Of a stretch of DNA of 64,000 bases, positions 7,921 through 22,818 are shown piece by piece. The notes under the pieces are model-generated. The model did not search any database and was not told the DNA's origin. It saw only the letters and a list, made by a program, of their open reading frames with translations. Position numbers and translations under genes: made by a program. The number at the start of each line of letters is the position of its first letter. Position 1 is the stretch's first letter. This stretch comes from Schmidtea nova. Taxonomy: Eukaryota. Where the stretch lies: NCBI GenBank assembly GCA_044892505.1, contig CM097882.1, positions 478,454,001-478,518,000 on the forward strand, in the 5' to 3' direction.

Positions 7921-9007
7921 TGTTCGGTTCGTATCAGTGGTTTACGACGAACACAGATATATATATATATTTGATTTGATTATCGGACTCCAAACGATAA
8001 TCCGCTTATATAATTGTAAATAAAAATATATGTTTTAGGTTGTGTGTAAAGAAAACAAACTAATTCTTTTTAATAAGATTTATTGTGAAATATGTATAAC
8101 AATGTACAATATAATAAAATAAAATAGCTGCAAAGCAAAAGTTAGAAAATCGGTTATACAAACCGTCCTCAGAGTTTAAGAACGAAAGCTGGACCTAAAA
8201 GGCTCAACAGCTCCGACTAAATGAAAGGTCAAAAGATGAGGGGTTTCCCGGTAGTTTAATCGCGATAGTGACAACCCAGAAATGGTTGTCACTGTGACCT
8301 AATAATTTCCCTTCTAATAATTTATTATTTAACGACTTTACTGAAGGGGAAAAATAGTAATATAACTATTTCCCCGTGATCGATTTATAGAATTAAAACA
8401 AACTAGAAAATTTACCAGCTAATAATTTGCTCAAAGATTATTCCAATTTCGAAAATTTATCACCAATGAAATTCTGTAAAATTATTCTCTCCACGCAAAT
8501 TTAACTTTGAACTAAACTTCTCAAATTCACTATTCTGTAAACACTTATGTTTCTAAAATTCACTTCTGTAAAAATTATGTTCTCTTCAACTGATTTTGTA
8601 ATCAGTATATATACAATTTGAACGATAGTAGGTTTACACACTACTACGCTCATCATCATCTCTTAAAACTGCGGTGGTGTTTTACCACTGCCTTTAAAAA
8701 TATTTATAATTATTATATTTTTATTGAAAGTAATTTATTATTACTATATATAACTTATTATTATTATTTAAATTTATCATGTATTTATTTATTACTATAT
8801 TTATTATATACTATTTAATTATTACTATATTTAATCTATATTTATTTATAGTAATTATTTATTTACTATTACTATTTATCTATTTATTTATTACTATAAT
8901 TATTATCTATCTATTTATAGTAATTCTTAATTGCTATTTATATTTATTTATTTACTTATAATATTTAATTACAAAAACCCGAGATCCCTTGATCTCGAAC
9001 CCTAACA
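7921..9007 (-). repeat. 3' LTR (1087 bp)
   Basis: TGTT...AACA termini; by eye identical to 21724-22818 except for an (AT)7 versus (AT)11 tract; AATAAA on the minus strand near 8077-8082. Confidence 0.97.
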
Positions 9008-9019
9008 TGTCTTCCCCCT
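9008..9019 (-). promoter_or_regulatory. Polypurine tract (PPT)
   Basis: Minus strand AGGGGGAAGACA immediately abutting the TG start of the 3' LTR. Confidence 0.85.
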
Positions 9020-9331
9020 AAAAAGATTTTCGTCCCGAAAATTAAAGCGGAAAAGACAAGAAGGTTACGCAGCCAAAAAATAAAAATAAAATAACAACAC
9101 ATGCATATATATACATTGAATGCACCTGGTCAATAAAAATTAAAATAAATCACATAAAACAAATGAGTCTCATAAAACACATAATACATAAGTAATGTTG
9201 ATCACAATCGATATCAAATAATAACTGTCTGTAAGAGTTGGATTGTTGATTACATAGCCGAAATGCTAATTGTTTGATTGAATATTTGTCATAGCTTATA
9301 GCTAGACCTTGAATTGAACGTAGCAGAAATG

Positions 9332-11296
9332 CTAGTTATCCTTTGCGAATAGGTTTTGAGCTGCTCTCTTGCGAATATGCGCTTGTTCGTTCTTGATGCG
9401 ATCTTCCACTATATCTGGTCTATAGCTGACCACCAATGTTTCGCGTGTTTCGACTTCCTTATATACCAAAGACGAAATCACGTATGATTTTCCGTTGGCC
9501 TCCAATACGCCATAGTAAGGGAAGTTTGAAACTGATGATTGGTGTACCGGTTTCCCATCGTATTCTTTTATCCGAGGTACCCAATTCCTTTCTGGTCGCT
9601 GCCAAAAACTAGGGTCTTCGTTATCCAAATCCTGGGGTGTCTTTGCTGAATTCCCCGTTCCAACGAAATCCCCTTCTCTTATAATGATAGGTTCGCCCTT
9701 AACCTCAGGAATCTGTTCCATATCGGGAGGAACGAATGCTGTTTCGATTAAGTCTTTGTCTTCCGTCGAGATAGGGTTTGGTACTTTCTTTTTGATCTTT
9801 AGATCTTGTAACCTTACAACAGGTTCTTGACTTTTCTTTGGGGGTGACTTTTCTACTGAAGTCAATTTTTTAAAAGTCTTAGTAACTTTTTCCAAGAGCT
9901 TGTTCTCTTTCTTTGGCGGATTTTCTGGAACAATCTTTGTAATTGTACGGCTGTCTCCGTGTAAAGTTAAACGCATCTCTGTTTGCTCCTCACCCTCGCT
10001 TTCGCAGGTGGCATAATCGTCTTCATCAGCTAATGATATAGCTGGAGGGGATAGTGATTCTTCCTCAACTATCTTTTGCAATTTGGTTGATAATGGCTGT
10101 TCCTGGGGTGAGCTCTCAATAGCTTTCCTTTTACTGGTTTCTTGTGGCTGTATTGTGTGAACCATTTTGACTTCTGATGTAATCGTTCTACTACGATTAC
10201 TTGGGGTGATGTCATCTACCCAAACTTCTCTCAGTTTAAGGTAAATATTACGTGTCGTTTCCACGTCATTTTCCGTTTTCAGATCTGAACGGTTTAGTTC
10301 TTCCTTTTCGAGAATTGACTTTGATAAATACGCGAGTCGATAATGTCCATTACATTTCTTTAGTTCTCTCGCTTCCAGGCATTTTGCTGCTCCTAGTTCC
10401 CTAATGCCCAAAACTCGTTGAGGGTGTAACTGGACTGCTTCCAAGAAATCGTTGACTTGGAGACCTATTAGGATTTTCCCATCACATAATTTTCTAATAC
10501 GGTCTGCGCAATCCTCTCCGTCAAATTGTCCGATGATTTCTTTTTCGGTCATACCATGCGCGTGCGATTGGTAATGTTTTACCTGGTTTCTGGGTGTAAC
10601 CACCGTGTTTAGTATTAAATCACCACAGTAGTTTGCTATCGAAACAGCCACCAAGGCTGGCTTTAAATAATCTCGCAAAGTTGCGTAATGCGCTGCAATA
10701 AATATTGACAATCTATCTTCTTGATTGGGGTGCAAATTCATCCGAACAAAGGATTTGAATGACTTGAGATCGTTCTCATTCACATTATAGGTCCAGGCAG
10801 GTTCATTTTTCCACAATGATTGCACTGCCTTGCTGGGTTCCAAAATCTCTAATACCACAATAGTATTATATCCGTCACATTGGATGGAGATATTCTTTTC
10901 TCTGCCATCTCCGTTACTAATTTCTAGAGTTGATTCTGGTTGAAGTAGGATGGGTCCTGTGGCTCCTGCCATGAAGATTGTAAAGGGTTTATTGATCGCG
11001 TGAATCAGGAGATGGTGAGTAAATGTTGATCTGTTAAATTCCGCCATGTGTTCAGTTAACCGGGTGTTCTCACGGCTGGTGATTGTGACTATGCACATTT
11101 CTCTCTTAGGCGATCCGAGAAACTTAAAATTGTTCGGGATGCCGGTGCAGTGCCCGTAATACCAATAGCGACGACCTTTCCGTGCCTCTGCGGATATCGC
11201 TTTTTCGATGTTTCGATAAATCAGTTTTTCCTTCTGTACTGCTTGCACATCGATAGTGCTATAACGCTGCTTGTATTGTGACACTTGATGCTTCAT
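9332..11296 (-). CDS. Retroelement accessory ORF2 with degenerate DEDDh (REX4/ISG20-like) exonuclease domain
   Basis: Intact ORF (track 9332-11368; probable start ATG 11296 just after acceptor ttttctttcag). Segment ALVAVSIANYCGDLILNTVVTPRNQVKHYQSHAHGM...KILIGLQVNDFLEAV...ENDVETTRNIY aligns by eye with REX4/ISG20 LARVSIVNxxGxxxxDxYVxPxxxVxDYRTxxSGI...ILVGHxLxNDL...EDARAxMxLY. Confidence 0.7.
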   Translation of the reverse strand: MKHQVSQYKQRYSTIDVQAVQKEKLIYRNIEKAISAEARKGRRYWYYGHCTGIPNNFKFLGSPKREMCIVTITSRENTRLTEHMAEFNRSTFTHHLLIHAINKPFTIFMAGATGPILLQPESTLEISNGDGREKNISIQCDGYNTIVVLEILEPSKAVQSLWKNEPAWTYNVNENDLKSFKSFVRMNLHPNQEDRLSIFIAAHYATLRDYLKPALVAVSIANYCGDLILNTVVTPRNQVKHYQSHAHGMTEKEIIGQFDGEDCADRIRKLCDGKILIGLQVNDFLEAVQLHPQRVLGIRELGAAKCLEARELKKCNGHYRLAYLSKSILEKEELNRSDLKTENDVETTRNIYLKLREVWVDDITPSNRSRTITSEVKMVHTIQPQETSKRKAIESSPQEQPLSTKLQKIVEEESLSPPAISLADEDDYATCESEGEEQTEMRLTLHGDSRTITKIVPENPPKKENKLLEKVTKTFKKLTSVEKSPPKKSQEPVVRLQDLKIKKKVPNPISTEDKDLIETAFVPPDMEQIPEVKGEPIIIREGDFVGTGNSAKTPQDLDNEDPSFWQRPERNWVPRIKEYDGKPVHQSSVSNFPYYGVLEANGKSYVISSLVYKEVETRETLVVSYRPDIVEDRIKNEQAHIRKRAAQNLFAKDN

Positions 11297-11482
11297 ATCT
11301 GAAAGAAAAATAATTAACGTTAATATCAGATATACTGATATGCCAATATTGGCTAAAAAGAAATGCATAAATCTCGATTTACGGGATCTACTTATGCTGT
11401 AAGTTAATGCTACTCGGAGCTCAACAAGATTATAGATTTTAATATATATATAAATACAAATATGTGATTTTATCTGTAATTG

Positions 11483-21640: not shown

Positions 21641-21702
21641 AACTTTTGTCTTTTTAGGAGCTATCTTGTATATATGACAATATGCCCACTGATAATAATT
21701 GT

Positions 21703-21720
21703 ATCACGTCGGGCTCACCA
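21703..21720 (-). promoter_or_regulatory. Primer-binding site complementary to tRNA-Trp
   Basis: Minus strand TGGTGAGCCCGACGTGAT, 3 nt from the 5' LTR; its complement ATCACGTCGGGCTCACCA matches the animal tRNA-Trp 3' end (ATCACGTCGGGGTCACCA) at 17 of 18 positions. Confidence 0.8.
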
Positions 21721-21723
21721 AAA

Positions 21724-22818
21724 TGTTCGGTTCGTATCAGTGGTTTACGACGAACACAGATATATATATATATATATATATTTGATTTGATTATCGGACT
21801 CCAAACGATAATCCGCTTATATAATTGTAAATAAAAATATATGTTTTAGGTTGTGTGTAAAGAAAACAAACTAATTCTTTTTAATAAGATTTATTGTGAA
21901 ATATGTATAACAATGTACAATATAATAAAATAAAATAGCTGCAAAGCAAAAGTTAGAAAATCGGTTATACAAACCGTCCTCAGAGTTTAAGAACGAAAGC
22001 TGGACCTAAAAGGCTCAACAGCTCCGACTAAATGAAAGGTCAAAAGATGAGGGGTTTCCCGGTAGTTTAATCGCGATAGTGACAACCCAGAAATGGTTGT
22101 CACTGTGACCTAATAATTTCCCTTCTAATAATTTATTATTTAACGACTTTACTGAAGGGGAAAAATAGTAATATAACTATTTCCCCGTGATCGATTTATA
22201 GAATTAAAACAAACTAGAAAATTTACCAGCTAATAATTTGCTCAAAGATTATTCCAATTTCGAAAATTTATCACCAATGAAATTCTGTAAAATTATTCTC
22301 TCCACGCAAATTTAACTTTGAACTAAACTTCTCAAATTCACTATTCTGTAAACACTTATGTTTCTAAAATTCACTTCTGTAAAAATTATGTTCTCTTCAA
22401 CTGATTTTGTAATCAGTATATATACAATTTGAACGATAGTAGGTTTACACACTACTACGCTCATCATCATCTCTTAAAACTGCGGTGGTGTTTTACCACT
22501 GCCTTTAAAAATATTTATAATTATTATATTTTTATTGAAAGTAATTTATTATTACTATATATAACTTATTATTATTATTTAAATTTATCATGTATTTATT
22601 TATTACTATATTTATTATATACTATTTAATTATTACTATATTTAATCTATATTTATTTATAGTAATTATTTATTTACTATTACTATTTATCTATTTATTT
22701 ATTACTATAATTATTATCTATCTATTTATAGTAATTCTTAATTGCTATTTATATTTATTTATTTACTTATAATATTTAATTACAAAAACCCGAGATCCCT
22801 TGATCTCGAACCCTAACA
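21724..22818 (-). repeat. 5' LTR (1095 bp)
   Basis: TGTT...AACA termini; direct repeat of 7921-9007, followed by TSD AGTA. Confidence 0.97.

Follow-up and report, generated by a model that had tools for sequence, protein, structure and literature searches.

The 64,000-nucleotide stretch of Schmidtea nova DNA analyzed here (the window; contig CM097882.1, forward-strand positions 478,454,001 to 478,518,000) harbors on its minus strand a long terminal repeat (LTR) retroelement of 14,898 bp, with exact boundaries at 7921-22818. We give a probability of roughly 0.8 to the reading that a Ty3/Gypsy element of the Gag-Env-Pol class (an errantivirus in the sense of Chary and Hayashi) was inserted here very recently, and that it is compact and Burro-like, encodes a polyprotein threaded twice through the membrane, and carries a non-catalytic second open reading frame (ORF2). 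The classification is held with high confidence and the membrane topology of the polyprotein is clearly probable; a decoy role for ORF2 is tentative, at somewhat less than even odds.

The element is flanked by a 4-bp target-site duplication, AGTA (7917..7920 on the left and 22819..22822 on the right), and alignment of its repeats defines a 3′ LTR of 1,087 bp (7921..9007) and a 5′ LTR of 1,095 bp (21724..22818); all features within the element are on the minus strand. The LTR termini are TG...CA, a polypurine tract (9008..9019) precedes the 3′ LTR, and a tRNA-Trp-like primer-binding site (21703..21720) begins 3 nt past the 5′ LTR. The primer-binding site matches the Trp_CCA end listed in supplement 1 of PMC13524379 at 11 of 12 nt, and it overlaps position 21718, the best candidate for a splice donor in the leader. 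The lone mismatch to the tRNA-Trp end sits within that donor candidate, possibly by chance. The LTR pair shows 0 substitutions over 1,087 bp and a single 8-bp indel within an (AT)n run, giving a 95% upper bound on divergence of about 0.28%; the insertion is therefore very young, unless gene conversion or consensus calling has made the LTRs alike. A first-pass annotation of the window, made from the sequence alone, had described LTRs identical except for (AT)n length, a clean 4-bp duplication, and a very young, virus-like element with accessory content, and all of this is upheld here. Within the 64,000-nt window there is no second copy of the element, no Rfam match and no tRNA gene.

ORF1 (11483..21631), identified from its open frame and Pfam matches, encodes a Gag-accessory-Env-Pol-membrane-protein polyprotein of 3,382 aa with no stop or frameshift. 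Its Pfam matches follow the order CCHC knuckles, Monjiviricetes fusion glycoprotein, aspartic protease, reverse transcriptase (RT), RNase H (RH) and integrase (IN). The open frames reported in the first-pass annotation are present with adjusted sizes: ORF1 measures 3,382 aa from its first ATG rather than 3,385, and ORF2, put at about 655 aa, measures 654 aa. Pol consists of an aspartic protease (PR) with an intact catalytic Asp (15620..15916, Pfam), a PR-RT spacer domain conserved in relatives (15302..15574), an RT with intact catalytic Asp residues followed by RH (13832..15124, Pfam and alignment), and an integrase with a zinc-binding domain, an intact D-D-E triad and a GPY module (12497..13564, Pfam and motifs). 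The spacer sits where Burro has a dUTPase-like domain; it has no Pfam match and no relevant match in the Protein Data Bank (PDB), and a dUTPase identity found no match in either search. The PR-RT-RH-IN order with a GPY module, the Pfam matches to RVT_1, RT_RNaseH and Integrase_H2C2, and the Gypsy-type neighbors in the searches agree with a Ty3/Gypsy placement, and the TG...CA LTRs, primer-binding site, polypurine tract and short target-site duplication are likewise Ty3/Gypsy traits. At one of the four RNase H catalytic positions, ORF1 residue 2555, the element differs from every one of the 15 relatives in the alignment, so that the earlier description of ORF1 as intact holds for the frame and not for this residue. 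The copy may lack self-sufficiency, with RNase H supplied in trans, or residue 2555 may reflect a post-insertion change or a base error.

A search with Pol returned 388 matches, of which 120 were listed and 45 of these entered a quick RT tree comprising all 26 rows flagged for PF24664 and 19 others. The element falls within a clade of 19 rows, supported by the Shimodaira-Hasegawa-like approximate likelihood ratio test (SH-aLRT 97), as sister to protein P0003 (98), with which it is colinear over residues 16-343 and 428-3061 (39%). Env precedes Pol in 17 of the 19 rows, the other two being ORFs that start inside the polyprotein. Relatives carry paired hydrophobic segments; those of the element lie at residues 1613, 3077 and 3340.

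Env (16562..18499) lies between Gag and Pol and is flanked by a signal and a transmembrane (TM) segment: an internal signal sequence is followed by a class III fusion ectodomain and a TM segment at residues 1613-1631. From its match to Pfam PF24664 (E 6.8e-88), which bears out the fusogen proposed earlier, the ectodomain appears to be of the herpes simplex virus glycoprotein B (HSV gB)/mononega-chuvirus type. Each of its 14 cysteines is common to 15/15 aligned relatives, and it aligns without gaps to an HSV/gB-type Env listed in PMC13524379. No R-x-[KR]-R site is present within the ectodomain, and no sequence match to Env was found among solved structures.

The second membrane protein (residues 3077-3382; 11486..12403) sits after the integrase. 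The first-pass annotation had proposed such a protein, and two hydrophobic segments are indeed found: a signal-like segment at residue 3077 and a TM segment at 3340-3358, separated by an ectodomain of ~245 aa. A post-integrase region with at least two hydrophobic segments occurs in 17/19 clade rows. The ectodomains themselves are very divergent, and that of the element has no BLAST match among 17 relatives. Two relatives (P0039 and P0041) have Pfam Ig domains in this slot, and locus L001 has a weak fn3 match after the integrase (E 0.0028). A family profile of the ectodomain retrieved only neogenin (E 0.081) and Dscam (E 0.87), and the Atlas search placed it with fn3 clusters at 0.91, with low recognition. 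An FN3/Ig-like fold for the element's own protein is a lead only.

Gag (20672..21631) comprises a capsid-like region and three CCHC knuckles, identified from domain matches and motifs. In the Gag linker, a 57-bp tandem repeat (20412..20576) repeats a motif that may serve as a protease-cleavage site. Downstream lie two modules, each a helix plus a ubiquitin-like (UBL) domain, detected with a profile built from nine relatives with the element's own protein left out. UBL module 1 (residues 473-602; 19826..20215) is a diverged copy with an independent E-value (iE) of 2.3e-7 and module 2 (residues 620-780; 19292..19774) has an iE of 2.2e-31. The model of module 2 folds as ubiquitin (Z 10.8, root-mean-square deviation (rmsd) 1.4, 74 residues aligned), and module 1 shows the strand/helix pattern in a low-confidence model. 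Of the tandem UBL modules claimed earlier, the second is thus established by fold and the first is supported as a second copy. UBL modules are found in 11/19 clade rows, nine of which are the training set, and are doubled upstream of Env in 4/19. The AT-hook of the first-pass annotation is present at residue 853 (19055..19084) as a motif only. A weak Bcl-2-like helical domain covering a BH1-BH2 region (18581..18805) matches Pfam at E 0.057 and the PDB at E 0.19. A homologous segment is found in three relatives (leave-one-out iE 8e-9 to 4e-3, single-sequence searches) and the BH1/BH2-region alignment to the PDB match is plausible; the AlphaFold2 model has a predicted local distance difference test score (pLDDT) of ~50, and the Atlas search gave no usable match for this region. 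MATH, BIR and ankyrin domains have no Pfam match in the element at E 0.1. The Bcl-2-like domain, the RNase H departure and the ORF2 AlkB fold described below were all absent from the first-pass annotation.

Several observations concern the clade in its own right. In seven of its 19 polyproteins (P0004, P0005, P0014, P0015, P0017, P0019 and P0024) the aspartic proteases number three, each with an intact D[ST]G motif: one follows the Env tail, one precedes RT and one follows the integrase. Two further polyproteins contain two intact aspartic proteases, and the element contains one. The post-integrase and accessory slots look interchangeable, holding Ig domains in the two relatives named above, ankyrin repeats before PR or after IN in P0016, P0018 and P0036, and an additional UBL copy at the C-terminus of P0015. 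Many contigs of the prokaryotic genome collection (L001-L078) encode Gypsy-type Pol, presumably through eukaryotic contamination. Among these, L001 belongs to the clade at 50% identity and also encodes the post-integrase membrane protein, and L066 and L071 carry gB-type Env.

ORF2 (9332..11296), delimited from its frame, homologues and model, consists of an AlkB-like fold, a pseudo-exonuclease and a long tail. It measures 654 aa from the second ATG and 678 aa from the first. The N-terminal TM segment of the 678-aa form was rejected as probably untranslated, because the closest homologues start at the Met equivalent to the second Met and because a candidate splice acceptor precedes that Met. 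A full HMMER search of 1.84 billion representatives recovered 101 relatives at E <=0.001, and a word-index search found none among 3,774 candidates. The AlphaFold model, built from 49 sequences (pLDDT 89.4), has two domains.

The exonuclease domain (10205..10726) has an ISG20/ISG20L2/REXO4-like DEDDh fold by profile and model: residues 215-388 match ISG20 with Z 18.0 and rmsd 3.1 over 161 aligned residues, and the region matches the ISG20L2 profile at E 3.1e-32. Only one of the four tested catalytic positions (D, E, H, D) is kept and three are lost, so that the exonuclease-like ORF proposed earlier is confirmed in fold but not in catalytic residues. When 102 proteins were scored, 83 covered enough of the domain and 19 were dropped. 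The full four residues are present in 54 of the 83, including a 17-row clade that we read as cellular REXO4/ISG20-like proteins; one or none is present in 25, including the element's ORF2, and two are present in 4, three of which are truncated. None of ORF2's nearest relatives has a complete catalytic set. On a quick tree the state must have changed four or more times, pointing to repeated loss of catalysis, although long branches and truncated rows weaken this inference. The relatives lacking catalysis are full-length and ~25-34% identical to ORF2, indicating that the degenerate state is old and that the frame has been maintained.

The N-terminal domain of ORF2 (10829..11296) adopts an AlkB/2-oxoglutarate-Fe(II)-oxygenase-like fold by model comparison, a double-stranded beta-helix in which residues 25-180 match OsALKBH1 with Z 11.3 and rmsd 3.3 over 139 aligned residues. 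ALKBH6 follows at Z 11.1, and more matches to ALKBH proteins and prolyl hydroxylases score Z 9-11. A profile of this domain matched 57/101 relatives, 47 of which had served to train it, and nothing else in the protein set analyzed. In 55 aligned ORF2 members there is no conserved HxD of the HxD...H triad, and a single His is conserved; the metal site appears to be absent, as judged from motif order and not from residue-level superposition. In a viral fold library, the best 50 rows were exonucleases, oxygenase-fold proteins or unnamed entries, with no full-length match (best query TM-score, TMq, 0.35).

A candidate splice acceptor AG (11299..11300) lies 2 nt before the ORF2 ATG. By a hand-set score it is the highest of 1,036 internal AGs; the best donor in the leader comes third among 675 GTs. 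These ranks make it reasonably likely that ORF2 is made from a spliced subgenomic RNA.

From the observed anatomy, folds, conservation and shared layout, and from the general principles by which membrane proteins are threaded and LTR elements replicate, we infer the following mechanism. One RNA transcribed from the 5′ LTR would yield a polyprotein threaded twice through the endoplasmic reticulum membrane, in the order signal, stop-transfer, signal, stop-transfer. Gag and the block of UBL, AT-hook and Bcl-2-like modules would remain cytosolic, the internal signal would export the gB-type Env, and the Env TM segment would return PR-RT-RH-IN to the cytosol. The second signal, past the integrase, would then bring a further protein to the surface. 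Cleavage by signal peptidase and, at the repeated candidate motifs, by the protease of the element could free the parts, and the result would be an enveloped particle with a class III fusogen and a second protein that may serve in attachment or as a decoy. Inside the producer cell, the Bcl-2-like and UBL modules may hold down both apoptosis and the turnover of ubiquitin. ORF2, made from spliced RNA, might act as a non-catalytic RNA-binding accessory that shields the element's RNA from host decay or modification.

Certain points weigh against this reading. Expression of the element, particle formation and membrane fusion are predictions. The Env signal segment is under the hydropathy threshold here, although it is above it in most relatives. 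The match to Bcl-2 does not reach significance and is slightly outscored by an unrelated Lon-type protease. FN3 was not detected in the element's second ectodomain, either by Pfam or by a profile built on 15 FN3-like repeats in relatives, which gave no positive-scoring domain. The weights of the splice scores were set by hand. Finally, none of 78 fetched Pol-scan loci matches the ORF2 profile beside its Pol gene; most of these loci belong to distant elements, and the nearest stops short of the point where an ORF2 could begin.

Another explanation is that the element is an ordinary intracellular retrotransposon in which Env, the second membrane protein and ORF2 are decaying, functionless passengers. 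The missing catalytic residues of ORF2, the divergence of the post-integrase ectodomain to the point of having no BLAST match among the 17 relatives, and the RNase H departure at residue 2555 could all be read in this way. However, both the 10.1-kb and the 2.0-kb frame are open throughout, the 14 Env cysteines are retained in every aligned relative, signal and TM placement is kept clade-wide, and the full-length state of the degenerate ORF2 relatives at ~25-34% identity points to an old state in a maintained frame. We consider the passenger explanation improbable.

The first-pass annotation had proposed a candidate new endogenous-virus family, with novelty to be judged against Burro. As a reading in which the architecture is unrelated to described elements, this proposal is not supported, because the Burro order and flatworm Gag-Env-Pol elements have already been described; it is largely refuted and even less probable than the passenger explanation. 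According to the Burro section of PMC6431247, ORF1 of Burro contains Gag, MATH, Ubi2/SUMO-like, BCL2, Env (with mononegavirus hits), PR, dUTPase-like, RT, RH and IN domains, and Burro is named there as the first case of an in-frame Env between gag and pol, with action of its UBL and Bcl-2-like domains on host turnover and apoptosis proposed. The available part of PMC11410931 only names Burro. Like the element, Burro/GYPSM1 of Schmidtea mediterranea has one ORF with a three-CCHC Gag, a Ubi2/SUMO-like domain, an in-frame Env between Gag and PR, a spacer domain, RT, RH and IN (PMC6431247); the BCL2-like match is weak in the element. Burro exceeds 30 kb, with an ORF1 of 4,873 aa (~4,900-5,100 aa), compared with 14,898 bp and 3,382 aa here, and has the MATH, BIR and ankyrin domains that the element lacks at the Pfam threshold given above; the element has two UBL modules. 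Compared by description only, the Burro section mentions neither a post-integrase membrane protein nor an AlkB-fold/exonuclease ORF, which speaks for novelty, as does a length half that of Burro. The element thus resembles Burro on a compact scale and agrees with the Gag-Env-Pol errantivirus class in all testable features, yet it is outside Burro membership by size and by the MATH, BIR and ankyrin modules.

The same class is known from other flatworm elements. According to the covered text of PMC13524379, Nematoda, Bryozoa and Platyhelminthes have Gag-Env-Pol elements whose Env is of the HSV/gB type, including nine from flatworms, six of them from Schmidtea mediterranea, and the flatworm errantiviruses are placed in RT clade E / IN clade Y. 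Ancient errantiviruses are described there as having a 'mini' bridge domain after RNase H, and multiple near-identical genomic copies are expected of the Gag-Env-Pol class. Among the six Schmidtea rows, the Env of Smed_errantivirus_4 is by eye the closest to that of the element, which shares its gene order and Env class. Identity, counted by eye, is 151/237 compared positions (62-64%), made up of 117/190 in the first ungapped stretch and 34/47 in the last, the gapped stretch between being omitted. Env pairs among the six Schmidtea elements range, for those shown, from 31 to 64%, with Smed_1/Smed_2 at 63.7%; by this comparison the element and Smed_errantivirus_4 are distinct families. The resemblance of the two Envs on its own makes a flatworm host likely. 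The implied ORF of Smed_errantivirus_4 is ~8.9 kb (its span less 3-kb extensions) and that of the element is 10.1 kb. No discussion of accessory domains was found in the covered text of PMC13524379, and the words 'exonuclease', 'ubiquitin' and 'accessory' are absent from the eLife main text.

Accessory ORFs of comparable kinds occur elsewhere. The Gypsy-like Juno and Vesta elements of bdelloid rotifers also carry a 3′ accessory ORF encoding a DEDD-superfamily exonuclease, as described in the consulted part of PMC5408684; their ORF3 is RNase D-like (DEDDy) with intact catalytic residues, whereas ORF2 here is DEDDh and ISG20/REXO4-like, degenerate, and fused to an AlkB-like fold. An AlkB-fold domain is likewise present in orchid Ty3/Gypsy elements, where the section of PMC9289625 covered reports a functional m6A demethylase (2-ODD/AlkB) in plants; the element, in contrast, has the fold joined to that of an exonuclease, and no conserved metal triad is seen in it. 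Literature listings showed no description of an AlkB-fold plus ISG20-like accessory ORF in animal LTR elements, although annotation in Repbase, Dfam or GyDB is possible. Novelty is confined to ORF2 and the post-integrase membrane protein; neither was found described in the papers covered, which does not establish absence from print.

The least credible alternative is that the assembly has collapsed several copies, or joined them as a chimera, into a single consensus, an artefact that would also account for the identical LTRs: the window has five N gaps and consensus calling can yield identical LTRs, but all five gaps lie outside the element and no N falls within it, the LTRs are unequal in (AT)n length, the target-site duplication is clean, and the clade-wide layout, including the same part order in the independent protein P0003, together with a uniform third-position GC content (GC3) of 0.30-0.40 across the ORF1 modules, argues against a chimera, so that the collapsed or chimeric assembly named in the first-pass annotation is not borne out.

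The remainder of the window contains other features. An uninterrupted 458-codon frame at 2415-3791 (-) matches ubiquitin C-terminal hydrolase (UCH; E 1.4e-12), with a catalytic Cys box that is degenerate by eye. A frameshifted fragment of a MULE transposase (E 1.4e-7) is found at 48949-50120 (+), and 235-nt inverted arms (95%) around an 89-bp tandem array at 52392-53482 form a structure like a foldback element or a miniature inverted-repeat transposable element. Dispersed inverted repeat copies at 40255-40438 / 54776-54959 (86%) and 44418-44576 / 61972-62130 (94%) are probably small non-autonomous transposons. Tandem sequences include a 303-bp duplication (98%) at 38438-39041 and a 63-bp satellite array with a 31/32-bp subunit at 53916-54440. 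A short frame at 41033-41326 (-), with a weak bZIP match (E 0.011), lies in a higher-GC island at 41-43 kb and is possibly a host exon. The GC-rich, skewed island at 60852-61965 (-) has no Pfam match and is likely a decayed retroelement; its Cys/His pattern resembles that of a Gypsy Gag knuckle.

A wider reading, possible but on balance unlikely, is that the clade consists of infectious complex invertebrate retroviruses. Its members would share a doubly membrane-threaded polyprotein and a conserved class III fusogen paired with a fast-evolving FN3/Ig-like attachment or decoy protein, many would use up to three proteases, and a spliced AlkB-fold plus ISG20-like protein would have turned repeatedly into a pseudo-enzyme antagonist of host RNA defence. 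ORF2 represents a candidate counter-defence protein family, for which no description was found, with about 100 database representatives that include both catalytically complete and degenerate members. The size and complexity of Burro are said in PMC6431247 to hinder its study. As a 15-kb, very young relative with open frames, the Schmidtea nova element could offer a tractable model for the making of an Env placed between Gag and Pol and for particle formation.

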